Shown in pieces: positions 1 through 18,884 of a stretch of 61,949 bases of DNA; within the stretch, counting starts at the first letter, position 1, and each line of letters starts with the position of its first letter. The stretch comes from a virus (lineage: Duplodnaviria; Caudoviricetes): IMG/VR virus record IMGVR_UViG_3300015245_000719, positions 1 to 61,949 of that record. One strand, given 5' to 3'. The position numbers were made by a program, and so were the translations under genes. The notes below the pieces were generated by a model that worked only from the letters and a program-made list of their open reading frames with translations, had not been told where the DNA came from and made no database searches.

Positions 1-219
1 ATGCGCGCCCTCCTCTCCATCCTTACCCTCGCGCTCGCGAGTTGCGCCAGCGTGGACAGCGTGGATCTGAGCAAGGTTGACCAGGCGTGCGGGCGCGCGT
101 GCACCCAGGACTACTCTACCTGCAACGACAAGTGGAGCTTCACGCCGGTCATGCGCCACAACGAATGCGTCGGCGCGCTAAAGGCATGCGTCTCGACGTG
201 CCCGTCCCGTCACTCCTGA
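1..219 (+). CDS. Small Cys-rich lipoprotein
   Basis: Hydrophobic signal ending in lipobox LAS|C, then six more Cys. Converges on the giant gene with a 10-nt overlap. Upstream context is outside the window. Confidence 0.7.
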   Translation: MRALLSILTLALASCASVDSVDLSKVDQACGRACTQDYSTCNDKWSFTPVMRHNECVGALKACVSTCPSRHS

Positions 220-3200
220 GTATCTTCCCTCGGCGGCCTGAGTAGGGACGCCACCTCGCCGCGCAGCGGTCGCGGCGCCAGCTTGATACTGCGGACGTCC
301 GGCGACATGCCGGCGAGCTGGAGGCGCCTGCGCATGGCCTGCGGCGTGATCACGATCGGCATGGTCGGGTTGGACTTGTTCCACGAGGCGATCTTCCGGC
401 GCACGCTCTCGATGTCGTCCCGGTCTCCGCTCCTGATGGCGTTCACGAACTCGTCCATCAAGGCGGACTTGGTAACGGCGATGAAGTTCTCGTCGTTCCG
501 GATCTCCCCCGTCACCCTCTGGCGATCAGCCACCGCGTTCGGATTGAACCCGGCCGCCTTGCCGACCGCCTCGAGCGGCGAGACCTTCGCCGTGAACTGG
601 CCGCGGGTGTCGCGCGCCTCGCCGCGGGCGAGCATTTCCGACCCCTTCACGAAGTTCTGAGCGGCCGTAGGCAGCGCGCTCTTGGCCGCGCCCAGGAAGT
701 CGCCATGGAAGGCGCGCTCGAGGCCCGTGGCGGCCCCGTAGAGCAGCCCTGCGGCCGGACCGATCAGGTCCCGGACATCCTTGAACTTGTCCGTCTCGCT
801 CACCTTGGCGAAGGCGGTCCCGGGGATCAGGTTGCCCATGGAGAGCCGCTGGCTGACGTCGAACGGGCTCACCGCGCTCGGGAGCCCCTGGACGAAGGCG
901 TTCCCGAGGAACTGGCCCAGGATCCTCTTCGACTGCTTGTCGAGCCACTTCTTGCTGTTGGTCGTCAGGCCGAGGTCGGGGAAGCGCTGACCGATCGTGT
1001 CGATCAGGTCCTCCAGGTCCTCGGCGAATGGCAGTCCCTCGACGCCGGCGGCGAGCAGGAGCAGCACGACCATGTAGACGCGTTGTTGCATTGGCATGCG
1101 GTGCAGCAGCTCGAGCACGTTGATGCTGAACTGCTTGAACGTCATCAGCGTGGACCCGAGCGCGCCGCGGCCCAACACCGGCCTGTTGCCCTTGTTGTAA
1201 AGGAACTGCGTCTCGTAGACGGCGTTCTCGGCGAACTTGTGCGGATCCCCCAACTGCTCGTTGGCCTCAGCGATCTTGTGGGCAGCGATGTAGGCCACGC
1301 GCCGGTTGAACGTCTCGGCGTATCCGAACATGGAACCCCACGCTTTGAGGAAGGATTCCGAATACTTGTTGCCCGCGAGCTTCGAGCCAGAGGCCACGCC
1401 CATCATTTGAAACACCTCTTGCGAGGCGGTCGTTCCGTCCTCCTCGGCCTTGCGAAGGTTGTCCCACAGGCGCCCGGTATGCACGAAGTCGCCGTTCAGT
1501 TTCTTCGAGAACGGGTCGAGTACGGCGTCCTTCGCCGCTCCGGTCAGGCGTGCAAGCACGTCTGGCAGGGATGCGAACTTCGTTAGGAACGGCCCCGTGA
1601 TAAGCGGAGTCTGAGTCAGGTTCGTGACGGCGGACGCGAGCGAGCCACCGATGAAGTGGAAGAACAGGTAGCCGCGCAGCTTGTGAGCCTCTTCCACCGG
1701 GTCGCGCAGGTACTTGTAGAGCGAGACCGCGTGGTCGCGCAGGTCGCCGTCCTCGATGTCCATGACGGCCTTCCCCATTCCAGGGAAGTTGTCGTTCGCG
1801 CTGGCGGCGCGCGAGTTCGTCATGATGAAGTCGGCCAGACCGCGGTAGGCGTCCTGCGAGAAGCCTGGCACGCCCTTCCGGTTAATGAATCGCTTCATCA
1901 TGGACCGGCTGGAGAACAGCTCCTTGTACGCCTCCTGGTACACCTCGTCATTCGCCACGCCCAGGTGCTCCGCGAATAGCTCTAGCGCGTCCAGGTTGAG
2001 CCCGTCGTACATGCGGAACGAGTTCTTGCTGATCGTGCCGGTCTCGATCTTGTACGCGTTAGGGAACTTGGCGCGCATGCGCGTCTCTTCGCGGTTCGAC
2101 TTGATGTTTGCCACGTGGCTCGTCAGGCCCTCGTGCAGGGAGAAGTGAGACGAGTTGCCGTCCTCGTAGTCCTTCTGCGTCTTGTACACCGCGACGTAGT
2201 GCGTTCCGAAGCGCGACAGCGGGAAGTAACCCTGATTGGACAGCTCGTTCACACGCTGAACGAGCTCTCCGATCTTGGCTACGCTCTTCTGGTCGGCGCG
2301 GACGGACGCCTTCAACTGCTCTACCCTGAACTCGAAGCCGGGCGGCTGCGCCTGCCGCAAGGTGTCGATGTTGCCCTTGGCCTCGGCGATGCGCTCCCCG
2401 AGCTGGAGCTCGATGTCGGCCGCGAAGTCCTCCATGTTGAGGTCCCTGTTCATGCTGACGCCAGTTTTCTTCGCCTCGCGCGCGATGAACGAATTAGCCT
2501 GCGTCTCGAGGGCTTGACGGACGGACGCATGCGCCTCGTGGTACATGCGGACCTGGGGCTCGGTGAGTGGCGTGAGAACCTTGTCGCCGTCCGGCGTGTT
2601 CACCGTGGGGCCGGAGCGAAGCTGCTCGTCCGAGAACACCTTGTTCAGCAGCGTGCCGTGCAGGAGGTACTGCGATGCGGCGTCGGCGTCCTTGCGGTTG
2701 ATGCCCTGCAACCATCCGCGCTTGAACCACGTCGGCGCTACCTTCTCGGCAGCGCTGGCGTTACGCCAGATGTCGGAGAGGAAGTTCTGCCCCCACTCGA
2801 ACACGTGTCGGAACTGAGTGTTGTTCTTGGCGAGGTTGAACTGTGTGCCGATCGTCTTGCTCCACATGCCGACCTTCGAGTCGGACTTCGTAACCTCGTT
2901 GATCCAGTCTCCCATGCGGCTGTAGAGCGGGGAGTTTGAGAACGCGTCGGCGTCCGGCGCCAGGGAAGCTGGCGCGCCCTGCTCCACCGTGCGCGCTGCC
3001 GGCGCAAGGAACTGGCGGATGATCTCCGCGTCCGTGATCTTCTGCTTGGACAGGATGCCGTGGTCGCGCAGCCATTGCGTGATGGCCGCGATGGCGCGCC
3101 GGACGAACCCGAGCTTGGGTTCGGACTGAGCCATGATGGCCAGCAGCTCCTCGGCCATCCTCGAGCGGTTCTCGGGGGTGTTCGGCATCCCCTGGGCCTT

Positions 3201-6200
3201 GAGGAGAGCTGCTACCTGCGAGGCCCGCGCGGTGGCGATCTGATCCAGGATCTCGGCGAGGCCGCGACCGAAGGTCTTGCGCAGCCCGTAGTGCCCCTTG
3301 ACCTCGTGGACCAGCGTGAACTTGGCGCCCGCGGCGTCGAGGTTCTGAGCGACTAGGTACACCTTGCCGCCGAAGAACACGCCCCCTACGTCCGTGGCGT
3401 TCTCGCGCTCGATCTGCTCGCGCACCTGCTGAGGGAGGTCCGCCAGGGTGGCAACCACCTCGACGTCCGGAGCGTCCGTCCAGTTGGCCTTCAGGTCGTT
3501 CACGGCCTTCTGGACCTCCCACACCTGACCGGCCTTGTCCTGGGCGCCGCGCGAGAAGGCCGCGCCCTCATACTTCTTCTCGTACTTGGACATGAACTTC
3601 TGCGCGGTTGTGGTCTGCGACTCGTTGACGTACAGACCCTTTCGCTCCGCGACCCACTTGATCGCCGCCTTGATGCGGTCGGGGTCGCGCATGTTCACTC
3701 GGAACGAGCTCTTCCCCTGCGCTGCCAGGTCGCCGGTGATTGCCACCAGCTCCTTGCTCTCGTACAGCTTCTTCGCGCCCGGGACGCGCTGGATGATCAG
3801 GTCCACCCACGGGCCAGCCGAGTCACCGACGAAGCGGACCATGTTGTCGTTGCTCGCCACGCCAAGCTGCTCGACGCCCTGCATGTCCTGGTAGGACAGG
3901 CGGTCGCGGGCGAAGGATGGCGACGTGAGGTAGTCGTAGATGCCGTCCACGTACTGCGCACCGTAGCGCGCGCGGTTAGACAGGAACACGTCCTGGTTCT
4001 GGACCATGGACGGCGTGAAGTTCTTCGGCAGCAGCAGCCCTTGCCGGCGCTCTCCGCCCTTCATGGTGAAGGTCACCACGTCGCCTACGTTGTTGGCGGC
4101 GCCGTAGCCTGCCGGGATGTTCCCGAGAACGTAGTAGCGCATTTCGCGCGGCTTCTCCCCGCTGATCTCACCCTTCTGCGGCTTGAACAGGAAGTCGAGG
4201 TCGTCCGAGCTCGTGTCCCGGAGAGCCTGGTCCAGGATGTTGTCGCGGATGATCTTCGAGAGCGGGATGGACGCGCGCCTGTTCTCGTTGTTGATCATGA
4301 AGTTGATTACGAAGTTCGACGGCGACCACGGATTGCCAGCTGACGGGAGGTTCGATTTGATGCCGATGATCACGCCCTGTGGCAGCGCGCCGTCGTCAAG
4401 GGCGAGACGCGCGTGATAGCCGATCTTCATCTGGCGCAGGTTCGCCAGGGTGTTCCGGCGCACGCCCTCGAAGTTGGCGATCTTCTTCTGAGTCGCCTGG
4501 ACATGGGCCGTGAGGTCCCGGCGACGCGCGTCCGAAATTGTTTCGTCCTTTAGCTGGTCGTTCAGGCCGCCAGCCCCCTCGATCTTGTTGAACTCGGCGG
4601 CCTTTGCCTGCTCGAACGGAGCCGTGCGCTCGTCCTCGAGGGCCTGGAGGATTTGTTCCGGCGTGCGGCCGTTCAGAGCCTCAGCGATAGCGCTCTTGAC
4701 CTCCTCCGGGCTCGGCCTGGTGCCCTGGACGAACATAGACATGTGGGTGAGGCTGGACGGCCTGGTGAAGATGCTGGAGCCGTCCCCGGAGGTGAGCTCC
4801 TGCTCGTGCTCGGGGATCGCCTCGGTGTCCAGGTCGCGAACGACCAGCTTGTTCGTGCCGGATTCGTTCTTCATGTTGATGATGGCGTTGTAGGCGTGCT
4901 CGACCTGATCGTAGAAGTCCTTCTGGTCGGCGACGGACAGGAGCGCGACGCGTCCGCTTGCTGCGAGCGCAACGCCCTCAGTGGATTTCTCGTCTCCGAT
5001 CTCCACGTTCACGAAGTCGGCCACGTCCTCGTGCTCGCGCAGGTACTCGGTCACGGCCTCGTCGCCGTAGAGGTTGATGAAGTCGATCGCCTGGACGTCC
5101 GTGGCTGACGACTGCCCGCTGGTGGTGTTCGACAGCAGGCTAGTCATCTTCTTCTTGAGGACAGCCATAGGGCGCTTCTCGGACGGGAGCGCGGTAGCCA
5201 GGACCGTGTAGTCCGGGGCGACGATCTGACCGGTGCGGTGCACGCGGCCCAGGGTTTGCTGGAACACGCTGATGTCGCCGGCGGCCTGGAGGATGATCAT
5301 GTGCCGCGCGCGCTTGTCAGCGAATTCCACGGACGCGTGCATGCTGATGCCGGTCGAGCCGGCGGAGTTCAGGATCACTGCGTCGATTGACCCGTCGTTG
5401 AAGCCGCGGACTGTGCCAATGCGATCGGCCTCCTCCTTGTTCCGGTTGCTGAGGACAGCCTTCCCGGTGGAGTAGTCCACGATGTTCGTGCGGCCGGTGA
5501 TCTCCGACACGCGCAGGGGCCGCAGCTTCTTGCCGCCCGACTCAGTGAACTTGACGTACTTGCGCTCGGGGTTGCCGTTCGCGTCCTCGTTGCCGGTGAA
5601 GTAATAGCCGTACTGGTTCAGGCGCGACCGCATGTAGTCGATCGGCGAGGCGGAGAGCGGCGTCTCCAGCTTGCTGATGACCTCGGACGCCTCGGTGAAC
5701 ACCCGGACCAGGTGCGACGGCATGCGCGCCATGGGCACGCTGATCTCCAAAGCCTTGCCGCCATGGGGCGGCTTGTACTTGAATGCGCGCCGGCGCTCGA
5801 GCGCCTTCATCAGGAGGGGATTCCAGCTGTAGTCGTCGAGCGCGTCACCCTGCTGTAGGGCCATGGAGCCGATGTAGTGGTCGAGCGCGGACTCCATGGT
5901 GTTCTCCAGCGGGATGATCACCTTTTGGTTGGTGTTGAGCTGGTTGATAGCCTTGTCCACCGCCCGATCCGCCTTAGTGGCCAGGAGGAGCTGCTTGACG
6001 TAGTTGTGCACGACGGACGTGAACGGGGTGTGCGTCAGGCTTTGCTGCTCGCCCTTCTTGTTGCGCACGATCTCGCTGCCGGGCGGCAGAAGATCCTGGA
6101 GCCTGTCAGCGTTCTGCTTGAACCACTGAATGAACTCCCGGTCGGCCCTGACGATCGTGCGCAGGGCGTTCGTGGCCTCGTCCATCAGGCGCGTGTCGCG

Positions 6201-9200
6201 CGCCAGGTTCTCATCGTCCACCTCGAAGTTGACCTTGAGCATGGACATGTCCTTCTCGCGGCGGGACATCTGGCCGTCCTCGACCAGCATGTTCGCCAGC
6301 ACGCTCTGCATCTGCGGGCCGCCGGTCGAGAGCATTTCCACGAGCTGCGCCGGGTCCTGCGCCAGCAGGCCGATGTTCGTGCGCATGTAGATCGGCATGT
6401 TGTTCGTGCGCTTGGCGTAGGTCGCCGACAGGTACACGACGGGCGGCGCGTAATCTGAGAACTGCCCCTGCATCCACTCGCCGACGCCTGAGTCGCCGCT
6501 TGCATTGTGGGACTCGTCGAGGATCAGGACGGCCTTCCCGGTCGAGAACAGCTTCGCCAGCGCGGAGCGGCGCGCGTTCTCCTGGTTGATCTGCGCGTAG
6601 GTCGTGAAGATCGCCGAACGGCCCTCCGGGAGGGTGCCGGTATTGACGATATGCTCGACTCCCTGCTTCGCTGCGCCCTTCTTGTTCGTGAAGAGCTTCG
6701 TCTTGCCGCTCGGGTCGCGTGGGTCGATGACCTCGCCATCCGTGTTCGTGAGGAACGGCGAGATCTCCGGATGCCCGATCGCGATCATGTCGCGGTACAT
6801 GTCGCTGTACAGGGTGTCGCTGTAGGACATGAACACCGGAACCTTATCGTTGCGGATGGACCAGTTGATCAGGGAGGCGGCCTGCCGCCCCTTGCCGACG
6901 CCGGTAGCGTCTCCGATGATCATGCCGCGGCCGTCCTTCAGCTGAAGGACGGCGAGCGCGATGTTGTCGATCTGGTAGCCGGACAGGGCGTCGAACATCT
7001 TCTCCTTCGTCCCGTACCCGAGCTCCTTCTGCACGAAGTCGTCGATGCTCTCGGAGCCCTGCTCGTGGATCTTGTCCTCGGCCACGTCCAGGGCGTCGCG
7101 CAGCGCGCGCGCCTGGTTGCGCGGCACCAGGATGCCGAGGTTCTGTCCCTGCGACTTGCCCTCGTACACCGTCTGGTTGTTGTTGTCGTGCCCGACGTCG
7201 GAAGGAGACATGACCTTCGAGGGCGGGTACATCTTGTCGAGGATGTACACCTTCGCGTATTTCTGGATTCCCTCGATCGCCTCGCCGAAGCGCTGAGAGA
7301 CGATGCGCTTGAACTCGAGCACAGCTCGCGTGGCGTCTGCAACCTTGGCGCGAATGGCCTGCCAGACGTTCTCGAACACCTTGCGAAGCTGCTGGTAGAT
7401 GGTTGCATCGACGGTCCCGAGCGCTTCTTCGTACAGCTTCCTGCTGAACACGGCTCCTCCGCTGTCTTTCTCGCCGATGATCTTCTTGATCTCGTCGAAT
7501 TCTTTTGAAAAATCCAGGCCGAGCGAACGCTCAGCCGCGGTTACATTCGAGCTGCTTTTCGGTGCGCGCTTGCCACCTCCGCGAGGACCGCGTGGTGGGC
7601 CTTTCGGTCCGGGGTTGCCCTCGACGGGCGCCCCGGTCTTTTCGTCAGGTACTAGGACCGACTCATCGTTGAAGATGCGGTCGATGTCCTCCGGCGAGAG
7701 ACCTTCTAGGCCGGTATCGCTTCCAGAAACTCCGACAGGTCCAGGCTGCTGCTCGCCTCGATTGCTTCCTTCCGGAGCTCCGGGTTCGTTTCCGGTTCCG
7801 CCGACGCCGGATCCCCCGCTTGCACCAGGGTTCCCACCCGGCCGCTCGACATCAGCCCCTCCACCCACCCCTGCGGGAACTCCGCCCACAGGATGCTGTT
7901 TTCCTCCGCCTCGAGGTTCGTTTCGACGAGGGCCTTGGCCTCCTTCTTTCCCGCCTTCAGGAGCAGCGACTCCAGCTTCTCCCTGATTGCTTCCCGGTAC
8001 GGCTGGCCCTGCGGGACCACCAACGCCGCTGCGTGGCTCGGCCGGTCCAGCTTCGGAACCCACATTGGCGTTGCCGGTGACAACGGCTTCGCTTGCTCGT
8101 TTTGCGTCCTCGTACTGCCTGTAGAGTGCATCGTACCCCTCCGTTACGCTGTAATTTACGCGCGTGATCGTACCACTGGCCGGCGCAACCTGCGCGGAGC
8201 GCCCGCGGCCGGCAATCGTGATGACTCGAATCGGCCACGCCGCGCCTTGGCGCTCGTAGAAAGAGCCGTCTACCTCGAAGTGCGAAGCGACATTGTAGTG
8301 GCCGTAGAGCCAGTTGAAGAATGGTTTCTCCCGGGAGTTGATCTCCCCTGGAATCCTGTTGGCGCCGATGATCAGCACGGCGCGCCCCTTGTCGAACATG
8401 GCCTCGAGCGCCCGCGCGATGATCAGCTGGTCGATCCTCGTGACCTGGTAGCCGTCCGCGAGCGCGGGCGCCTCCAGCTTCCCGAACGGAGGATTCGCGA
8501 GCACCGCGTCGGCCTCGTCCTTGCCGAATACGTTCTCTTCCTTCGCCTTCACCGCGTCCTTCTGCGTGACGCGCGGGAAGCCGAGGAGCTTCAGATTGAG
8601 CGCCCTGTGCTCGTCCAGCTCGTTCGCGATGACGTTCTTGGGCGTCGCGGTGATGGTGAGCAGCCCGTTCCCGGCAGTGGGCTCGTACACCTTGGTATCG
8701 ACTCCAACGCGCGCGAGCAGCCCGGCCATGTAGGCGATCGGGAGCGGCGTCGAGTATTGCTGCAAGGACGAGCTGGTGGACGTGCGGATGTTCAGCTTCG
8801 GCTGCTTGCGGTACATATCCACCAGGTTGTCGAAGATGCCGCGCTCGTTCGTGCCGGTCGCGCGCCAGTCGATGATCTTCTGCGCGGCGAACTGTCCGAG
8901 GGCTGCCTCGAAGTCCTCCTGCCCCTTCTTCTGAAGGATCAGGTTGCCCTCTACCTCTGTGGGGTCGAGGCGGTGCGCTTGCGCTACCCAGGAGAGCAGG
9001 TCCTTGCCGCTCTCAGGGAACCATCCTTTTCGCAGGTGGAAGAACATGCTCTCGACCATGGAGTCGTTCTTGACCTCGGGGTATTGCACGAGGCCCATGT
9101 CCTCCATGATCTTGTCGATGCGGCCTGAGATCTCCTTGGCCTGCTCGCGCCCGACGGCAATCCTCATCTGCTCGACGTTCTTCGCGCCTTCCTTGACGCG

Positions 9201-12200
9201 CACACCCTCTGGAGTGAACTCCAGGCCAGCGAAGAAGTTCTTGTAGTCCTGGGCGAACAGGCGCCGCTCTTCAGCCTGCGGGTATGCGGTTCCCTTGTAG
9301 CCGTTCGTTTTCGTCATAGCTCCTTCTCGAACGAGAGGTCCGACGAGGTACGGCGATCCGCCCTTCACGAGGTCGAAGAGGTACGCTTCCTCTCCGCGCG
9401 CCACCATTTCTGCGCCCTTCGAGTAGTACGGGTCTGAGCCGTGATCCAGCTTTTGCGCTTCGTTGAGGTAGATGGTGTTCCGCAGCAGACCGCCGCGGTA
9501 TTCCGGGCTCTTCCAGTCAGAGGTCCCTTTCTCGTTCAGCCAGTTGAGGACGCGCTCGCGCGGTGGAACATTGCGGTTCTGGTAGTCGGCGTCTCCGACC
9601 AGGAGCTCGCGGACCTTCGCCTCCATCTTGGCGAAGTTGAAGTATTGGTTGAGAACGTGACGAAGCGCCTCTGAGTACAGCCTCGCTCCGTCCTGCTCGG
9701 AGTGGATCAAGTAGTGCTCGAGCGCGTGCATCCACTCGTGCGAGACGGTACCGTTCCCATTCGTCTTGGTGAGATTGATCACCTCTCCGCCGATGTGGCT
9801 GGTTTCGAAGTGGGCGGCGGCCTTGCTGATCTTCTGCCCGCGCGAGCCGAACGCCAGCGCGAGCTTCCCGCCGAGTCCAACCACCTTCGGGTCGATCCCG
9901 AGGTTGTCGGACATGTCCATCAGGGAGTCGTAGGCTAGGTTCAGGTTCTCCTGGCGCTCGAGCTGGTTGACCCACTCGCCGAACTCGACCTCGCGGAAGC
10001 CGAACGCGGACTTGAAGTCGGCCTCGTTGACGTTCTGGCCCTTTCGGTAGTCCTTCATCCCGACGCGGGTGATGTTCTCCAGGCGAGGCGGGACCTTCGG
10101 GTCCTTCTTGACCACGCGGTTCGTCTGGTCGATCTCGTTCTCGTTCGGCTGGAATGCTTTCAGGTAGTAGTCGAGCATCGCGTACAGATCGTTGCTCATC
10201 ATGCGCTGAAGCTCGCTGCCGAATTTCGTCGCGGTGTGCGTACTTCCGTAGCTATTCGCCTCGCCCTCTGTGAACGCTTCGTTCTTGATTGCAGCGTTCG
10301 CCTCGGCAACGTTCTTGGCGTCCTTCGTCAGCTCTTCCAGCTTGGAGAGCATCCCGATATAGCGCTCGGCCTGCGCCTTGACTTCGGAGTATTCCGTGTC
10401 GATCAACGCCTGCTTGAGGCTCTTGCCCCACCGCGTATTGCCCTGCTGGCCGCCGAAGCCTGGGCCTGCGAATTCGAGGAACGTTTTCAGCTTCTCGCGA
10501 ACAGCCTCGAGGTAGAGCATCGTCCCGAAGGTCGCGTCGGGGCGCTCGATCGTGAAGTGGTTCGCGACCTTCGCCTCGTCGATCAGCTTGTCGATGTCCT
10601 TCTCTCCCTCGCCGGTTGGCTCGGAGAGACGCAGAGTTCCGCCAGCAGGCTTGCCTCCGACGACGCCCGTGTCATGGATGTCGCTCTTCTGCGGCCGGTA
10701 CATCGTGTAGAGCTGGATGCGCGCGACGCCCTGCTCGGGCTGGAGCCGGTCCGTGACCTTGAAGCCCATCTTCTTCATCACGCTCTCGATGGGCTTCTGG
10801 TTCTCGACCGTCACGGACATCTGGACGATTCCCTCGTCGAGGATGGTTGCGCCGTCCTCGAAGGTGGGCGTGAGCTCGGCGGCGCCGTAGATATGATCGG
10901 TGAGCGCCTTGTTGTTGCGCTCGGCGATCATCTTCACCAACGGGTCCACCGGCGGCTTCGGCGCCTTCGGGGCCTTTGGCTCTTTCGGCGCCTTCGGTTC
11001 CTTGGGCGCCTTCGTCTCCTCCGGTGTGGCAGGCGGCTGCTCGCCGGGCGTCTCGGGTGTCGCCGGCGCCTCGGGCGTCGCGGGCGCGCCGGGCGCTTCT
11101 CCGCCGGTCACGCCCTCGTTGTTGCCGTGGATCTTCTTCGCGTTCTGTGCTACGCGCTCCAGGCGGTCCAGGTTCTCGCCGAACGGCGCCTCCTGGCCGA
11201 TGCGCTTGCGGATGTTCGCGGCCCGGCGCTCGTCGCCGATGCTGTCGTAGATCTTCGCGATGCTCTCGAGCCGCTGGTCGCGCTCGCTCAGTTGTACACC
11301 GCCGTTGGGTGCCTCCGCGGCGGGCGTGGCAGGCCCCCCTTCGACATGCTCCGGCGCTTCTGGTCCAGCGCTATTGCCACCGCCTGTTTGTCCGCTTTCT
11401 CCTTCCCGAACTTGTCCTGTGTCCGCTGGTACGTGTTCCCCTGGTGCAGCTCCTCGATGTTCTGGCCCACCACCTTGTTCGACGTTCCCTTCTCCAACGG
11501 CATTGCTCTCTCCCTGTGATTGCGGGGCCGCGCCGCCTTCAACGCCGGCGCCCTCCCCTTGTTGTTGGGTCCCGCCTTCCTGCGATTCAGCGGGCGCGCC
11601 CGGAGCTACAGGTTCCGCAGCCGGGGCCTCCGGTAGTTCCGGCGTCTGTTCGGCGCCGGCCGGTAGTCTCGGTGTCTTGCTGAATGTTCCCGCCGCGATG
11701 GCGGCCTTGAATTCCGGTACGGACAGCTGACGCATGCTGCCGAAACCTTTCCATCCCGCCTCGTAGTTCGCGAGGTAGCCCTTCTTGGCTGCGCGCGCGG
11801 ACTGGAAGCCGACCATGATCTTGTACTCGTCGTGATCGCCGCTCTCGGGGTCCACCTGGTCGATGGCGAACACGGTCGAGCTGTTCGGGTGCGGCCCGAT
11901 GAACACGTCCACCTTGTCGCCGTCGCTGCCGACAGTGCCCTCGATCTCGCCGTAGTGGTTGGCCATCGTGACGGACCACTCCTTGCCGGTCTTGTCCGTC
12001 CCGCGGCGCACGCTCCCCTTCGGGTTCTCTATAGCGATGTCGAGACCGTGGAAGTTGACGACGCCCTTGTTGTACTTGCCGGTATCCTTCTCCTCCTCGG
12101 TGGGGTTCTTGTCGGTGAATCCTGCGGCGTTCTCGACGTCCGCCTTCGTAGGCGCGCCCTGCTCGGGCGCCGCCGGAGCTGCTGGCGCGGGCTCGGCTTG

Positions 12201-13802
12201 CGGAGGTGTCTCCGCAGCTGGTGCCGGAGCTGGCGGCGGAGGCGGAGCGGCGTGCTCGCCGCCGCCCGTCATCGCACCGAAGCCGGCGCCGGTCGGGGCC
12301 GCGGCAATAGCGCTCCCGATGGAGTTGTTCCATACGCCATCCATCAGGTCCTTGCCTGGGTTCGCGTGCTGCTGCTCCGCTACGTTCGAGAGGAACTGCT
12401 CGAACCATCCCTGCGTGAGCTCGGTTGGCGTCTCGATCGCGAGGCCGTGCATCGCCTCCTTGAAGCGCGTCATGCCCGAGCCGCCGCGCGTCATCACCTT
12501 CGCGACCTGGGAGCCGACGTAGCCATCGAAGCCTGCGCCAAGGAGCGCGGTAGCCGCGCCGACCTGCCACAGGGTTTGGATGCCGGCGGAGTTCGAGATC
12601 TCGGCGCGCGCCTTCGCGCGGTCGCCGTGGGACTTCACGAGCGCAGCCTGGTACTCCGGAGCCTGCTCGAGCACGCTCTCCGGGAGCTTCGCGATGGAGT
12701 CCTCGACCTGCTGCCCCTGCTGGCCGCCGGCGATCAGGCCCTCGCCCGCGCCCCCGAGTGCGATGGCGCTGTACGTCGCAGCCTTGATCGCCGCCTTCTC
12801 TGCGGCTGCCCTCGCTGCGAGGGCCGACAGGCCCAACGTCTGCGACTTCGCGAGGGACGTGCGGAAGGCGACAGTTGCGGCGAACTTCGCGCCGACGCCC
12901 GCCACCGGGAGCGTAGCCAACGTGGACGGCAGCGAGTTGACGATGCCAGAGTAGTACGCGCGCGGATCTGACCACGCCTCTCCGAAGGTCTCGCCCTTCT
13001 GGCTCGAGATCCATTCTTTCTGCGACGCGTCGCGCATGTCCGGCGACAGCTTGTCCCCGTAGTAGTCGGAGACGTCCTGCATGATGCCAGACAGGCTACG
13101 GCCAAGATGCTCTTCCGAGAGCCGGTTGATCTCGCCGCCGCTCACCTTGTCGGCGGCGTATGAGAGCCCCTGCACGGCCTGCGCTGACCCCTGGCCGAGC
13201 AGGTTCAGGGTGTCAGAAATAATGCCCGGTTTTTCTGACGGAGCAGCCTTGACTGGCTCCTCCGGGTCCGCTACGAAGTCGGTGAACGCGCCGGACTGCG
13301 CCGGCCCGGCGATGTTGCGGTTGACGCCGGCGACGTACTGCGGCACAGAAACGCCGTTGCCGTCGCGGATGTGCCCCATGCGGCTCACGTCGCCGCCGTA
13401 CTGGTCGATCAGCTTGGGGTCGGTGAAGTAGGCGGCCGTCTGCGCGTCGGGGTTGCTCGGGTAGCGGTCGGCGTTCTGCTTGATCAGCTTCGCGGCGGCG
13501 CGCGCGTTGTCGTTCGGGTCGTCGATGTTGCCGTCGGGCATGAGGCCGCCGAACGTGGCGGGCATGACCTGGAAGCCGCCGCGTGCGCCGTTGACGCTCG
13601 TGCGCGGGTTGCGCCCGCTCGAGCTCTCCATCTGCCAGTGCGCGAGGACGCGCTGAGGATCTGCGCCCTCTTCCTTCGCGATGCGGATTACGTCATCGCG
13701 CGTGATGCTCGTGGGGGTCTGAGCCTGCGATACGGGGGAAGAGACCGGCGCGTCGGGCGAGCCTGGGACGTTCTCGACGAAATCGGTGAAGCCGGTTGAC
13801 AT
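210..13802 (-). CDS. Giant DarB-like polyvalent virion protein (~4530 aa): lytic transglycosylase, PPase-like, LPD1 peptidase, N6-adenine MTase, Strawberry-notch helicase, zincin, PLxRFG domains
   Basis: Start moved to ATG 13802 (GGGAG upstream). Motifs: MESS...GGFQVMPATF; IENPKGS...HYGEIEGT.G.DGDKVDVFIG; VEFGEW...HEWMH; EPTAGNG...NPPF; GDATGVGKGR...DESH; HEVKGH; YFPLSRFG. Confidence 0.92.
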   Translation of the reverse strand: MSTGFTDFVENVPGSPDAPVSSPVSQAQTPTSITRDDVIRIAKEEGADPQRVLAHWQMESSSGRNPRTSVNGARGGFQVMPATFGGLMPDGNIDDPNDNARAAAKLIKQNADRYPSNPDAQTAAYFTDPKLIDQYGGDVSRMGHIRDGNGVSVPQYVAGVNRNIAGPAQSGAFTDFVADPEEPVKAAPSEKPGIISDTLNLLGQGSAQAVQGLSYAADKVSGGEINRLSEEHLGRSLSGIMQDVSDYYGDKLSPDMRDASQKEWISSQKGETFGEAWSDPRAYYSGIVNSLPSTLATLPVAGVGAKFAATVAFRTSLAKSQTLGLSALAARAAAEKAAIKAATYSAIALGGAGEGLIAGGQQGQQVEDSIAKLPESVLEQAPEYQAALVKSHGDRAKARAEISNSAGIQTLWQVGAATALLGAGFDGYVGSQVAKVMTRGGSGMTRFKEAMHGLAIETPTELTQGWFEQFLSNVAEQQHANPGKDLMDGVWNNSIGSAIAAAPTGAGFGAMTGGGEHAAPPPPPAPAPAAETPPQAEPAPAAPAAPEQGAPTKADVENAAGFTDKNPTEEEKDTGKYNKGVVNFHGLDIAIENPKGSVRRGTDKTGKEWSVTMANHYGEIEGTVGSDGDKVDVFIGPHPNSSTVFAIDQVDPESGDHDEYKIMVGFQSARAAKKGYLANYEAGWKGFGSMRQLSVPEFKAAIAAGTFSKTPRLPAGAEQTPELPEAPAAEPVAPGAPAESQEGGTQQQGEGAGVEGGAAPQSQGESNAVGEGNVEQGGGPEHRGAAPGEHVPADTGQVREGESGQTGGGNSAGPEAPEHVEGGPATPAAEAPNGGVQLSERDQRLESIAKIYDSIGDERRAANIRKRIGQEAPFGENLDRLERVAQNAKKIHGNNEGVTGGEAPGAPATPEAPATPETPGEQPPATPEETKAPKEPKAPKEPKAPKAPKPPVDPLVKMIAERNNKALTDHIYGAAELTPTFEDGATILDEGIVQMSVTVENQKPIESVMKKMGFKVTDRLQPEQGVARIQLYTMYRPQKSDIHDTGVVGGKPAGGTLRLSEPTGEGEKDIDKLIDEAKVANHFTIERPDATFGTMLYLEAVREKLKTFLEFAGPGFGGQQGNTRWGKSLKQALIDTEYSEVKAQAERYIGMLSKLEELTKDAKNVAEANAAIKNEAFTEGEANSYGSTHTATKFGSELQRMMSNDLYAMLDYYLKAFQPNENEIDQTNRVVKKDPKVPPRLENITRVGMKDYRKGQNVNEADFKSAFGFREVEFGEWVNQLERQENLNLAYDSLMDMSDNLGIDPKVVGLGGKLALAFGSRGQKISKAAAHFETSHIGGEVINLTKTNGNGTVSHEWMHALEHYLIHSEQDGARLYSEALRHVLNQYFNFAKMEAKVRELLVGDADYQNRNVPPRERVLNWLNEKGTSDWKSPEYRGGLLRNTIYLNEAQKLDHGSDPYYSKGAEMVARGEEAYLFDLVKGGSPYLVGPLVREGAMTKTNGYKGTAYPQAEERRLFAQDYKNFFAGLEFTPEGVRVKEGAKNVEQMRIAVGREQAKEISGRIDKIMEDMGLVQYPEVKNDSMVESMFFHLRKGWFPESGKDLLSWVAQAHRLDPTEVEGNLILQKKGQEDFEAALGQFAAQKIIDWRATGTNERGIFDNLVDMYRKQPKLNIRTSTSSSLQQYSTPLPIAYMAGLLARVGVDTKVYEPTAGNGLLTITATPKNVIANELDEHRALNLKLLGFPRVTQKDAVKAKEENVFGKDEADAVLANPPFGKLEAPALADGYQVTRIDQLIIARALEAMFDKGRAVLIIGANRIPGEINSREKPFFNWLYGHYNVASHFEVDGSFYERQGAAWPIRVITIAGRGRSAQVAPASGTITRVNYSVTEGYDALYRQYEDAKRASEAVVTGNANVGSEAGPAEPRSGVGGPAGPAVPGSNQGEAGVAAPEGGKEGGQGPRRNEPRGGGKQHPVGGVPAGVGGGADVERPGGNPGASGGSGVGGTGNEPGAPEGSNRGEQQPGPVGVSGSDTGLEGLSPEDIDRIFNDESVLVPDEKTGAPVEGNPGPKGPPRGPRGGGKRAPKSSSNVTAAERSLGLDFSKEFDEIKKIIGEKDSGGAVFSRKLYEEALGTVDATIYQQLRKVFENVWQAIRAKVADATRAVLEFKRIVSQRFGEAIEGIQKYAKVYILDKMYPPSKVMSPSDVGHDNNNQTVYEGKSQGQNLGILVPRNQARALRDALDVAEDKIHEQGSESIDDFVQKELGYGTKEKMFDALSGYQIDNIALAVLQLKDGRGMIIGDATGVGKGRQAASLINWSIRNDKVPVFMSYSDTLYSDMYRDMIAIGHPEISPFLTNTDGEVIDPRDPSGKTKLFTNKKGAAKQGVEHIVNTGTLPEGRSAIFTTYAQINQENARRSALAKLFSTGKAVLILDESHNASGDSGVGEWMQGQFSDYAPPVVYLSATYAKRTNNMPIYMRTNIGLLAQDPAQLVEMLSTGGPQMQSVLANMLVEDGQMSRREKDMSMLKVNFEVDDENLARDTRLMDEATNALRTIVRADREFIQWFKQNADRLQDLLPPGSEIVRNKKGEQQSLTHTPFTSVVHNYVKQLLLATKADRAVDKAINQLNTNQKVIIPLENTMESALDHYIGSMALQQGDALDDYSWNPLLMKALERRRAFKYKPPHGGKALEISVPMARMPSHLVRVFTEASEVISKLETPLSASPIDYMRSRLNQYGYYFTGNEDANGNPERKYVKFTESGGKKLRPLRVSEITGRTNIVDYSTGKAVLSNRNKEEADRIGTVRGFNDGSIDAVILNSAGSTGISMHASVEFADKRARHMIILQAAGDISVFQQTLGRVHRTGQIVAPDYTVLATALPSEKRPMAVLKKKMTSLLSNTTSGQSSATDVQAIDFINLYGDEAVTEYLREHEDVADFVNVEIGDEKSTEGVALAASGRVALLSVADQKDFYDQVEHAYNAIINMKNESGTNKLVVRDLDTEAIPEHEQELTSGDGSSIFTRPSSLTHMSMFVQGTRPSPEEVKSAIAEALNGRTPEQILQALEDERTAPFEQAKAAEFNKIEGAGGLNDQLKDETISDARRRDLTAHVQATQKKIANFEGVRRNTLANLRQMKIGYHARLALDDGALPQGVIIGIKSNLPSAGNPWSPSNFVINFMINNENRRASIPLSKIIRDNILDQALRDTSSDDLDFLFKPQKGEISGEKPREMRYYVLGNIPAGYGAANNVGDVVTFTMKGGERRQGLLLPKNFTPSMVQNQDVFLSNRARYGAQYVDGIYDYLTSPSFARDRLSYQDMQGVEQLGVASNDNMVRFVGDSAGPWVDLIIQRVPGAKKLYESKELVAITGDLAAQGKSSFRVNMRDPDRIKAAIKWVAERKGLYVNESQTTTAQKFMSKYEKKYEGAAFSRGAQDKAGQVWEVQKAVNDLKANWTDAPDVEVVATLADLPQQVREQIERENATDVGGVFFGGKVYLVAQNLDAAGAKFTLVHEVKGHYGLRKTFGRGLAEILDQIATARASQVAALLKAQGMPNTPENRSRMAEELLAIMAQSEPKLGFVRRAIAAITQWLRDHGILSKQKITDAEIIRQFLAPAARTVEQGAPASLAPDADAFSNSPLYSRMGDWINEVTKSDSKVGMWSKTIGTQFNLAKNNTQFRHVFEWGQNFLSDIWRNASAAEKVAPTWFKRGWLQGINRKDADAASQYLLHGTLLNKVFSDEQLRSGPTVNTPDGDKVLTPLTEPQVRMYHEAHASVRQALETQANSFIAREAKKTGVSMNRDLNMEDFAADIELQLGERIAEAKGNIDTLRQAQPPGFEFRVEQLKASVRADQKSVAKIGELVQRVNELSNQGYFPLSRFGTHYVAVYKTQKDYEDGNSSHFSLHEGLTSHVANIKSNREETRMRAKFPNAYKIETGTISKNSFRMYDGLNLDALELFAEHLGVANDEVYQEAYKELFSSRSMMKRFINRKGVPGFSQDAYRGLADFIMTNSRAASANDNFPGMGKAVMDIEDGDLRDHAVSLYKYLRDPVEEAHKLRGYLFFHFIGGSLASAVTNLTQTPLITGPFLTKFASLPDVLARLTGAAKDAVLDPFSKKLNGDFVHTGRLWDNLRKAEEDGTTASQEVFQMMGVASGSKLAGNKYSESFLKAWGSMFGYAETFNRRVAYIAAHKIAEANEQLGDPHKFAENAVYETQFLYNKGNRPVLGRGALGSTLMTFKQFSINVLELLHRMPMQQRVYMVVLLLLAAGVEGLPFAEDLEDLIDTIGQRFPDLGLTTNSKKWLDKQSKRILGQFLGNAFVQGLPSAVSPFDVSQRLSMGNLIPGTAFAKVSETDKFKDVRDLIGPAAGLLYGAATGLERAFHGDFLGAAKSALPTAAQNFVKGSEMLARGEARDTRGQFTAKVSPLEAVGKAAGFNPNAVADRQRVTGEIRNDENFIAVTKSALMDEFVNAIRSGDRDDIESVRRKIASWNKSNPTMPIVITPQAMRRRLQLAGMSPDVRSIKLAPRPLRGEVASLLRPPREDTQE
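7706..8131 (-). CDS. Overprinted 141-aa protein nested in the +1 frame of the giant gene
   Basis: GGAGGGG 5 nt before ATG. Genome-typical codons (CTG, GAG, AAG, ATC) in this frame while host-frame third positions become A/T-rich. Helical, globular-looking sequence. Confidence 0.65.
   Translation of the reverse strand: MHSTGSTRTQNEQAKPLSPATPMWVPKLDRPSHAAALVVPQGQPYREAIREKLESLLLKAGKKEAKALVETNLEAEENSILWAEFPQGWVEGLMSSGRVGTLVQAGDPASAEPETNPELRKEAIEASSSLDLSEFLEAIPA
11288..11503 (-). CDS. Overprinted 71-aa basic phage protein (MPLxKG...KQAVAIAL type) nested in the +1 frame of the giant gene
   Basis: AGGGAGAG SD before ATG 11503. MPLEKGTSNKVVGQNIEEL...KQAVAIAL matches a small phage protein pattern I recall as a stand-alone gene (DUF6496-like). 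Confidence 0.75.
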   Translation of the reverse strand: MPLEKGTSNKVVGQNIEELHQGNTYQRTQDKFGKEKADKQAVAIALDQKRRSMSKGGLPRPPRRHPTAVYN

Positions 13803-13866
13803 CTTGTTCTTCTCCCGGCCTGCGCTGCGCAAAGGCGCGCGCCGTCACCGCGGTAGTTGATCTTCC

Positions 13867-17001: not shown

Positions 17002-17560
17002 TGCCCACCCCGCGCGTCTTGATGTCGGCGACCAGGTGAACGCGCGGCGTAGCTCCGCGGTTGTGCACCTCATGCTCCTTCGTGTAGTCCACCCACCATA
17101 CCTCGCCGCTCTTCATGTTCACGCTCTCGTCGCCGCAGATGAACTCCGACTTGTCGTTGCTCGCGAGGACGAGGTGGAACCTGTCGTAGTACGCCGCAGA
17201 TCCGCCGGTGTCGCTGTGCCGGTCGATCTTTCCGCCGGCCGCCAGCTTGTTGATCATCACGCGCCCAAGCCGCTCGCCCTCGACCTCATGCATCAGGTCG
17301 AAGATAACAGGGCGGATTTCGTGCCCCAAGCTGTTCATCGCTGGCTCGTCGAAGCACTCGAACGGATCGGCCTCCGGTACGCGCGTGTCGAGCCAGGGAC
17401 GCTTGTCCGGGAAGCGAAGGTAGATCGTGTCCACGTCACCGAACTTGGTGTTCGGGTAATTCTTCCAGAACGTGTCGAGTTCGAACAGCTCCGGCTGATC
17501 CTTGAGGGCGGCCATGATGCGGCCCGCGGGAGCGTGGAATGGGAGGCGCTTGATGTTCAT
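16991..17560 (-). CDS. 2OG-Fe(II) oxygenase, Asp/Asn beta-hydroxylase (protein hydroxylase) family
   Basis: GGKIDRHSD (HxD), RFHLVL, GEVWW...HEVHN (distal His), RVHLVAD (2OG-binding Arg). Confidence 0.85.
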   Translation of the reverse strand: MNIKRLPFHAPAGRIMAALKDQPELFELDTFWKNYPNTKFGDVDTIYLRFPDKRPWLDTRVPEADPFECFDEPAMNSLGHEIRPVIFDLMHEVEGERLGRVMINKLAAGGKIDRHSDTGGSAAYYDRFHLVLASNDKSEFICGDESVNMKSGEVWWVDYTKEHEVHNRGATPRVHLVADIKTRGVGNAF

Positions 17561-18879
17561 TAGTCCCTCACTCCGCCCTGCGGGACGTTGAATCGGTTCG
17601 CGTCCGGGCGACGCAGAATCAGCTGGCGAAGCTGCTCCTTCTGAGCCGGCGACATGGGACGCTGCGCGGTCATCCCCTGGCTCGTGCGCTCGGGCTGAGC
17701 CTCGGGCGCGCGTGGCACCGAGTTCGGGTCATCCTCGTCGTCGAGGCGCTTGATGGCCACCTGCGTTTGCGCGCTGATTCCGCCGCTGGCGAGCTTCGTG
17801 GTCGGCTCGACGTGCACGCCGTTCTTCATCTTGCTGCCCTTCGGCAGACCGCCGAGGTTCATGCGGTCGAGCTTCTTCAGGCCGATCTTCTTGGTCGCCT
17901 TCGCGTTCATGACGTACTCTCCATTGGAGAGCGCGCCCGGCCTGCCCGCGATGCTCACGGGAATAGAATCACTGGTGCCTGTACCTGGGCCTTTCACACT
18001 GCCGCCCTTGAGGTAGTCGTGCGTTCGGCTCGGCGGACGGGGCAGCCGCACACGCCCCCCCTTCTTGTACGCTCCGGACCCCGAGTAGTCCGCGTACACA
18101 GTGTTCGCGTCGTTGACGGCGCCGGTGTACACGTTGGGGTCGATGTTCCCCGATCCGACTCCGGAATTCGCCGGACTCGAGAACGACGGGAGCGAGACAC
18201 CTTTCGAGAGAGAGCCCACCGCGCCGGCGAGCTGCCCGACGCCTGCGGCTTCGTTCGCCAGGATGTCAGACGAGCGCGCCGCGTTCGCGCCGGCAATTCC
18301 GGCCGCGCTCGCCGCGCCGTTCTCGGCGCTTACAGCCGTACCCGGAAGGCCCTTACCTACGTCTGCCGCGGCGATTTTGGCGTTCAGCCCATACGCGCGC
18401 TCCGCTTCGCGCGCGGTATTCGCCGCGCCCGCGACGGAGCCAGCTTTGGCGATGGAGTTCATGCGCTCCTGCTCCTGCGCATTCCCCGAGTCGGGTCGGA
18501 TCCCCAACTGGTCGTTCTGAAGCTGACGCGCCTTGTCGGCGTTGTCGTAGGCAGCGCCTACGGTCGAGCCGGCCTCTGCGGCCTTCTGTTCCTGCATCGC
18601 AGGAGAGCCAGCCTGCTGAGCGTCGTTGACGAGGCTCGACTCAAGAGGGCGATAGGTGCTCTTGTAGTAATCGAAAAGGTCCTGGGAATTCTTCGTCTGC
18701 GCGTCCGAAGCCCGAGCCGCAGCTTCGGAAGCATCGTTCTCCTGAGCAGACGGACCGCCGCTCTTCCCGCCAATAAGTCCCGTCTCCTTGGCGGCGATGA
18801 GCGCAGTCGAGCCTGCCGCTACCCACCCGGCAAATCCACGCTGAAACCGAAGGCTCCTTACCATGCGCTCTTTCCCCAT
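17560..18879 (-). CDS. Ejection/pilot protein with tape-measure-like C-terminal motif
   Basis: Ala/Gly-rich helical body; KGGSVKGPGTGTSDSIP...LSNGEYVM motif. Start could be 18882, 18879 or 18864. Confidence 0.72.
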   Translation of the reverse strand: MGKERMVRSLRFQRGFAGWVAAGSTALIAAKETGLIGGKSGGPSAQENDASEAAARASDAQTKNSQDLFDYYKSTYRPLESSLVNDAQQAGSPAMQEQKAAEAGSTVGAAYDNADKARQLQNDQLGIRPDSGNAQEQERMNSIAKAGSVAGAANTAREAERAYGLNAKIAAADVGKGLPGTAVSAENGAASAAGIAGANAARSSDILANEAAGVGQLAGAVGSLSKGVSLPSFSSPANSGVGSGNIDPNVYTGAVNDANTVYADYSGSGAYKKGGRVRLPRPPSRTHDYLKGGSVKGPGTGTSDSIPVSIAGRPGALSNGEYVMNAKATKKIGLKKLDRMNLGGLPKGSKMKNGVHVEPTTKLASGGISAQTQVAIKRLDDEDDPNSVPRAPEAQPERTSQGMTAQRPMSPAQKEQLRQLILRRPDANRFNVPQGGVRD

Positions 18880-18884
18880 CATTT

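Follow-up and report, generated by a model that had tools for sequence, protein, structure and literature searches.

A small DUF6496-like phage gene apparently embedded out of frame in the linker of a giant polyvalent protein gene

The IMG/VR virus record IMGVR_UViG_3300015245_000719 (Duplodnaviria; Caudoviricetes), analyzed here in full and called the window, comprises 61,949 bases as a whole provirus record, with a completeness rating of 99% and a guanine-plus-cytosine (GC) content of 64%. Inside its giant polyvalent protein gene, an open reading frame (ORF) of 216 bases on the minus strand (11503..11288) is best read as a functional embedded gene, translated independently and overlapping, in the +1 frame, a linker between domains of the giant protein; we put the probability of this reading at about 80%. 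It is supported by the homology of the 71-residue product to small stand-alone phage proteins, by a reversal of codon usage between the two frames, and by the recurrence of the same arrangement in other loci, where the small frame appears to be the one under selection.

Position, signals, and family of the embedded ORF

The small ORF is enclosed entirely by the 4540-residue ORF 13832..210, just after its InPase domain, and is in the +1 frame of this ORF on the same strand (13832 − 11503 = 2329 = 3 × 776 + 1). With a start signal of its own, it shows the four properties of an embedded pair of the Rz/Rz1 type, namely, same strand, +1 frame, complete enclosure, and own start signal. Because of the stop codon 34 codons upstream in the small frame, the ORF cannot be a domain that the giant protein contains in frame. 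The features of the region are as follows.

11288..11503, minus strand: putative embedded small gene of the DUF6496-like family (phrog_2423), 71 codons plus TGA (ATG at 11503-11501, TGA at 11290-11288)
11506..11514, minus strand: purine-rich Shine-Dalgarno (SD) run GGGAGAGAG, with the GGAG core at 11513-11510, 6 nucleotides upstream of the small-gene ATG
11348..11503, minus strand: conserved core, residues 1 to 52, with the invariant Met-Pro start and the predicted three-helix bundle
11291..11347, minus strand: nonconserved basic tail, residues 53 to 71, with KGGLPRPPRRH, predicted to be disordered
11606..11608, minus strand: nearest upstream TAG in the small-gene frame, 34 codons before the ATG
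210..13832, minus strand: host ORF, gene of a 4540-residue polyvalent (DarB-like) virion protein with SLT, InPase, LPD1, and SNF2-type helicase domains
11697..12095, minus strand: InPase domain, giant residues 580 to 712, the last recognizable domain ahead of the linker
11313..11642, minus strand: Gly/Glu/Gln/Pro/Ala low-complexity linker, giant residues ~731 to 840, which overlies the small gene; GC content at third codon positions (GC3) in the giant frame is 0.27 to 0.57, versus ~0.9 elsewhere

The predicted product is MPLEKGTSNKVVGQNIEELHQGNTYQRTQDKFGKEKADKQAVAIALDQKRRSMSKGGLPRPPRRHPTAVYN, a protein with a net charge of about +7 as counted from the sequence, and this is the only copy of the family in the record. 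No internal promoter or terminator was found in positions 11000 to 12200.

Among 16 candidate small proteins, 13 match the small ORF at an E value of ≤0.01 (database size, 5.8 billion). These 13 are 53 to 97 residues long and 57 to 68% identical to it, with E values of 2.7e-14 to 4.8e-7; all of them begin with Met-Pro-Leu, coinciding with the start of the window ORF, which also keeps all 19 invariant columns of the homolog alignment. The ORF is matched by phrog_2423, a PHROG without a curated cut-off and with no function assigned, at an E value of 2.1e-12 (47.9 bits), and its residues 8 to 54 align with positions 6 to 52 of the 58-position Pfam model DUF6496 (PF20106). Two proteins that are 61 to 64% identical to it (P0006 and P0009) carry PF20106, and a fused homolog in locus L028 scores 26.2 bits for DUF6496. 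A profile built from 78 family members (alignment A2) retrieves at least 3000 cluster representatives at an E value of ≤0.001, 217 of them at ≤1e-10, and the window ORF has the features by which this alignment defines the family, an N-terminal Met-Pro together with N15, E18, Q40, and A43. Weak tblastn matches include SP6 gp51 and gp35 of Escherichia phage vB_EcoP_B, small late genes each annotated just after tail fiber or spike genes, and another gene positioned after a P22-like coat gene. The near full-length alignment is shared with DUF6496/phrog_2423 members such as SP6 gp51, whereas the window ORF is embedded out of frame and not stand-alone. A full-text literature search for DUF6496 found no paper. 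Homology establishes the small ORF as a genuine member of a phage family whose proteins are small, basic, and mostly stand-alone.

Codon usage separates the two frames of the shared DNA. Over positions 11522 to 11402, GC3 falls to 0.25 to 0.40 in the giant frame, versus 0.8 to 1.0 in the flanking domains, and is 0.75 to 0.95 in the small frame. A Gly/Ala/Glu/Pro-rich stretch has a high first-position GC content, which by itself raises the GC3 value of the +1 frame; the collapse of the giant frame's own third-position GC is not a consequence of this composition. Giant-frame GC3 drops below 0.6 in only two stretches of the 13.6-kb ORF, the small-gene stretch and 8132-7503. The two other frames of the giant gene hold 21 ORFs of at least 40 codons, and among the 20 besides the small ORF a reversal of codon usage occurs only in 8131..7706 and in the partly overlapping 8238..7957. 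By this measure, the small frame is putatively the older of the two.

ORF 8131..7706 (minus strand, 141 residues, ATG start, +1 frame) lies inside the second low-GC3 stretch (7503-8132), where giant-frame GC3 is 0.27 to 0.57; over the ORF itself, GC3 is 0.82, versus 0.48 in the giant frame. It had no match in Pfam, PHROG, the protein database, or tblastn against phages, and it may be a second swallowed gene or merely a Gly-rich linker with odd codons.

An AlphaFold2 model computed from a 78-row alignment predicts a three-helix bundle over residues 9 to 54 (helices at 9 to 21, 23 to 32, and 34 to 54) followed by a floppy tail, with a mean predicted local distance difference test (pLDDT) score of 86.1 and values of 95 to 97 in blocks 11 to 50. 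Stand-alone copies of the family sit in head/packaging modules. Among 28 of their neighbor proteins that were scanned, 12 match terminase, portal, major head, adaptor, or virion structural PHROGs; the remainder are 1 methyltransferase, 2 families of unknown function, and 13 proteins without a match. In annotated records, the family gene is found 3′ of a P22-like coat gene or of SP6-like tail fiber/spike genes. The small protein is best described as a basic three-helix head-module protein with a link to polyvalent cargo proteins; our guess at its function is that it may serve as a virion-incorporation or cargo-handling module.

The domain keeps to the N terminus of the proteins that carry it. 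In a survey of the best 150 representatives (154 domain rows), the first residue of the family lies at protein residue 3 or earlier in 126 rows, of which 117 begin with Met-Pro. A further 24 primary matches start 5 to 60 residues in, and 22 of these, read by eye, have Met/Val-Pro at the implied family start; the offsets are probably over-extended start calls. The last 4 rows are apparently second, weak matches in four proteins. The proteins in 22 of the 154 rows have 250 to 1253 residues, and several of them are fused forms with LPD23 or ART-PolyVal; none of the 150 representatives has the domain in the interior of a long protein. Because the domain is always N-terminal, with an invariant Met-Pro, it probably needs a free Met-Pro N terminus, and such a need would explain why it is absent as an internal in-frame domain.

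Four of the in-frame fused proteins (P0167, P0168, P0042, and P0079) have in common an N-terminal DUF6496 domain and a conserved C-terminal block (~VPGRTD...GQGNT.AG...LPGP), and their middles are variable, with LPD23 or ART-PolyVal. This layout suggests constant end modules around exchangeable cargo.

An earlier note, written from the letters of the window, had described the ORF at 11288-11503 (71 residues, +1 frame, SD), and these properties are confirmed, with the minus strand as its strand. Its suggestion that the sequence resembles a stand-alone basic phage protein agrees with the 13 small homologs, the phrog_2423 match, and the profile representatives; the protein and profile searches that it proposed, expecting stand-alone homologs, gave significant matches to small proteins. 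Its view that a chance origin is unlikely is upheld by homology down to 2.7e-14 and by the codon-usage contrast, and the ORF is indeed nested in a linker of a polyvalent protein gene. The note had also seen an echo of the tail, SKGGLPRPP, in the protein encoded at 17560-18882 (minus strand), a 440-residue virion structural protein (phrog_8003) that contains KKGGRVRLPRPP and whose Gly-rich segment also matches tape-measure PHROGs. The match itself is present (KGG...LPRPP.R), and translation of the window in six frames gives just two LPRPP motifs, one in the small-ORF tail and one in this protein. As a real similarity the echo was rejected and judged to be chance, as the tail is not conserved in the family and the BLASTP E value, from a single pairwise comparison, is 0.033. 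The 440-residue protein showed no similarity to the fused family members.

Three arrangements of the family and selection on the two frames

Scans with the family alignments yielded 82 loci, 80 of them viral and 2 from genomes; two peptide patterns were used, so this sample is biased towards copies that carry them. The loci fall into three arrangements.

Embedded in a same-strand ORF: 15 of 82 loci, with host ORFs of 776 to more than 2600 codons; without exception the giant frame equals the small frame +2, as in the window
In-frame N-terminal fusion: 9 of 82 loci, where the small domain begins a longer protein of 142 to 1683 residues
Stand-alone, separate small gene: 58 of 82 loci

Two pairs of the embedded loci are locally identical, leaving 13 distinct embedded sequences besides that of the window. 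They span a GC content of 0.36 to 0.67, and an SD core precedes 13 of the 16 embedded copies (window included), versus 36 of the 58 stand-alone ones. The embedding giant ORFs carry LPD38, ART-PolyVal, Acb1/2H, GNAT, and DarB-like domains, and two of the fused loci have ART-PolyVal matches, one above the Pfam cut-off (L017) and one below it (L014). Flanking similarity among embedded copies at an E value of ≤1e-5 is limited to 6 upstream and 4 downstream pairs (91 pairs compared on each side); across loci L001 to L080 the embedded gene is a conserved island in at least eight polyvalent contexts with unrelated flanks. A tblastn search of GenBank phages with the embedded peptides of L018 and L034 gave no match at an E value of ≤0.001. 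Stops close the second alternative frame in 57 of the 78 distinct DNAs, the first of them at codon 3 in 35 cases, which may be the reason why a single register is seen. By domain content and arrangement, the family appears to be tied to polyvalent proteins in three ways, as an N-terminal domain, as a separate neighbor, and as an out-of-frame embedded gene.

Substitutions were analyzed over 46 gap-free codons, with 10 of 83 sequences left out for indels, giving 68 distinct DNAs of which 13 are embedded. In the small frame, the proportions of nonsynonymous and synonymous differences (pN and pS) are 0.270 and 0.683 over 78 embedded pairs, a ratio of 0.40, and the ratio is 0.32 over 1485 non-embedded pairs. 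In the giant-type frame, the ratio is 1.62 for embedded copies versus 1.71 for non-embedded ones, where this frame is not coding. Mean pairwise identity of the small protein is 0.639 among embedded and 0.663 among non-embedded copies, and 47% and 54% of the differences, respectively, fall at the third position of the small frame. Within related groups the small protein is more conserved than the flanking domains of the giant protein; in L018 and L062, for example, it is 80% identical, while the upstream flank is 40% and the overlapped giant frame 46% identical. These patterns point to the small frame as the primary selected reading, with purifying selection on it across the embedded loci.

The same comparison bears on whether the small ORF of the window phage could be a relic, recently swallowed and no longer translated, so that only the giant frame would matter there. 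The giant frame is uninterrupted, as a relic would have it, and there is no promoter-like site nearby, although none is needed inside an operon. Between the window and its nearest embedded relatives, however, small-frame pS is 0.55 to 0.66 (0.55 versus L001) and pN is 0.16, and the start codon, the SD sequence, and all 19 invariant residues are intact. The record, rated at 99% completeness, has no second copy of the family; codon usage in the giant frame remains strongly atypical across the small-gene stretch; and the embedded state has been maintained in 15 other loci. We consider a relic unlikely.

The giant frame of embedded copies differs from the same frame of non-embedded ones in being open and poorer in hydrophobic residues. 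It is free of stops in 13 of 13 embedded DNAs versus 9 of 55 non-embedded ones (mean, 1.98 stops), a contrast that is partly circular, as embedded loci were defined by an open giant frame. At a locus GC content below 0.46, 4 embedded copies have 0 stops and 7 others have 1 to 8; the contrast persists in these AT-rich loci, where openness by chance is unlikely, and is therefore not wholly circular. The share of C, W, F, Y, L, I, and M in the giant-type frame is 0.062 in embedded versus 0.163 in non-embedded copies (Mann-Whitney P = 6e-6), and that of G, E, Q, P, S, T, A, D, and N is 0.739 versus 0.555 (P = 1.5e-7), with P values that overstate independence because the sequences are related.

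Alternative readings and the history of the giant gene

Given the +1 offset of the small frame relative to the giant frame, a −1 slip near the 3′ end of the small gene would join the two and produce the downstream giant part with a DUF6496 N terminus, like the in-frame fused relatives. Such N-terminal fusions to polyvalent proteins do occur elsewhere, and a G GGG GGC heptamer stands in register at codon 56 of the window ORF. G-runs are poor slippery sites, however, and in-register slippery heptamers are found in 5 of 14 embedded copies versus 19 of 55 stand-alone ones, at no common position and with no sign of a shared slippery cassette; the small ORFs terminate at ordinary stops, at lengths typical of the family. 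Frameshift coupling is very unlikely on these grounds. Hardly credible is an artefact or chance, whether as an ORF open at random in GC-rich DNA or as a domain of the giant protein moved out of its frame by two compensating assembly indels. A genome with 64% GC does have many long alternative-frame ORFs, and locus L088, full of frame breaks, documents that such errors happen. Against this, homology reaches E values of 2.7e-14; the ORF starts at the family Met-Pro-Leu behind an SD sequence, and a stop closes its frame 34 codons before that start; the domain does not occur inside long proteins among the 150 representatives; the same register recurs in 15 independent loci; and the codon-usage reversal is absent from other alternative-frame ORFs of at least 40 residues save 8131..7706 and the overlapping 8238..7957.

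The reading as an embedded gene with a function of its own is preferred to these three, and it would work as follows. Ribosomes would initiate independently at the internal SD/ATG and release a free 71-residue protein, and those coming from the start of the giant gene would read the same DNA one base off, as a flexible linker. The small gene would have been kept out of frame, and not absorbed as an internal domain, because its product probably requires a free N terminus. In the likeliest history, the flanking genes were joined by read-through fusion across an older small gene. Growth of the giant ORF by fusion across a formerly separate gene, which the earlier note had proposed, is plausible: by codon usage the small frame is the older one, most family members are stand-alone, and all three forms (separate, fused, and embedded) are represented. 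An origin by this route has also been put forward for embedded spanin genes (PMC6139136).

Several results weigh against this reading or the history attached to it. Besides the partial circularity and the relatedness of sequences described above, the window ORF scores 15.5 bits against DUF6496 (E value, 0.023) and does not reach the curated gathering cut-off of 24 bits. Fold searches lend no structural support to the guess at function, with no match at an E value of ≤0.001 in the PDB and, in a library of viral models, only uncharacterized small phage proteins (best E value, 0.095). No unfused relative of the window's giant gene was found in searches of the 82 loci, phages, viral contigs, and metagenomes, which makes codon usage the one line of evidence on the direction of evolution. 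Specifically, the giant protein, searched by tblastn, matched 2 of the 82 loci, only over the overlapped stretch; blastn of the giant gene against phages returned 1 record, over the InPase part only; a scan of viral contigs with giant residues 561 to 1110 retrieved no relative; and a metagenome scan for the giant gene retrieved only L088 (3349 bases), near-identical to window positions ~10500 to 13800. Finally, in a tree of 77 peptides (46 columns), 0 of 73 inner branches are well supported; the embedded label requires 9 changes on it, versus a shuffled mean of 13.2, with 0 of 500 shuffles as low, and the tree is compatible with a single origin of the embedded state as well as with many.

The protein pieces of L088 jump among all three frames, and this contig appears to be an error-rich assembly of the same phage that holds no evolutionary information.

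The giant gene itself is the last gene of a minus-strand late structural operon that includes genes for terminase subunits, the portal, structural proteins, a DNA transfer protein, and an internal virion protein. Along its product, the SLT domain covers residues 51 to 135, InPase 580 to 712, LPD1 1466 to 1537, and the SNF2-type helicase domains 2283 to 2984; AAA_34 and Helicase_C_4 are among the domains matched, and the protein also matches PHROGs of DarB-like and other giant phage proteins. With several unrelated effector and LPD domains in a virion module, it has the attributes of a polyvalent protein. The ORF as listed begins with TTG at 13832, and an ATG ten codons downstream (13802, minus strand, MSTGF) may be the true start.

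Comparison with known systems and implications

The closest parallel is the Rz/Rz1 pair of phage lambda, in which Rz, read in the +1 frame, contains Rz1; spanin systems comprise 182 embedded, 228 overlapped, and 118 separated cases (PMC6139136). Both systems have a small phage gene that possesses a start of its own and is contained completely, in the +1 frame, in a larger one, and embedded and separated forms occur in different phages. The differences are several. The protein families are others, and the genes belong to a head/virion module here and to lysis there; what is overlapped here is low-complexity linker sequence in a multi-kilobase polyvalent gene and not a structured periplasmic domain; a third form, the in-frame N-terminal fusion, exists in addition; and no interaction is known between the two products here. 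On this analogy, the small gene is best read as an independently translated embedded gene comparable to Rz1 in Rz, and would be a new example from a different family and process.

The host ORF agrees in its make-up with polyvalent proteins (Iyer et al. 2017, PMC5512222), having many unrelated domains in one polypeptide, with InPase, LPD1, SLT, and a DarB-like helicase in a virion module, and polyvalent proteins bearing InPase are probably packaged into the virion according to that work. In its main text, the words "overlap" and "frameshift" are absent and "nested" is used in a structural sense only, so an out-of-frame embedded gene appears not to be part of the published description of polyvalent proteins, as far as the main text goes. 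A search of the literature on polyvalent proteins and overlapping genes and on nested or out-of-frame small phage proteins, supplementary files aside, found no description of the arrangement. As in the viral overprinting discussed in PMC8227390, two frames of one stretch would both be read, and an asymmetry in codon usage marks the older frame. In the present case, the embedded small gene appears to be the older and widespread one, and the new reading would be a featureless linker and not a new folded protein.

The earlier note had further suggested that genes nested in this way may be a general property of polyvalent loci. Within the DUF6496-like family the suggestion is borne out by 15 of the 82 related loci and by the selection on the small frame; beyond this family it finds no backing, the candidate at 8131..7706, presumably the other overprinted gene of the note, being without a homolog in the searches made. 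One wider reading would make DUF6496 the virion-incorporation or cargo-handling module of polyvalent proteins, whose genes would grow by read-through fusion with adjoining ones. Needing a free Met-Pro, the module could not be taken up in frame and would survive in embedded form, and as a conserved island in giant genes that are otherwise unrelated it would act as a hinge for recombinational exchange of cargo cassettes. We offer this reading tentatively, as more doubtful than probable; were it true, polyvalent loci would regularly contain hidden embedded genes as part of their structure.

For the family, the arrangement would mean that a conserved gene is hidden from standard gene callers in a sizeable share of its carriers (15 of 82 sampled loci), so that gene-content and presence/absence calls for DUF6496-like proteins are biased. 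A strong bias of gene callers against embedded genes of the spanin type has been described (PMC6139136). The case would also provide an instance of dual coding in which the primary and secondary frames can be separated by codon usage and substitution pattern, over a GC range of 0.36 to 0.67. The rule that the domain is either N-terminal or else out of frame points to a function requiring a free N terminus. For the assembly of giant polyvalent genes, the arrangement would mean that a linker of the giant protein is an out-of-register reading of an older gene.

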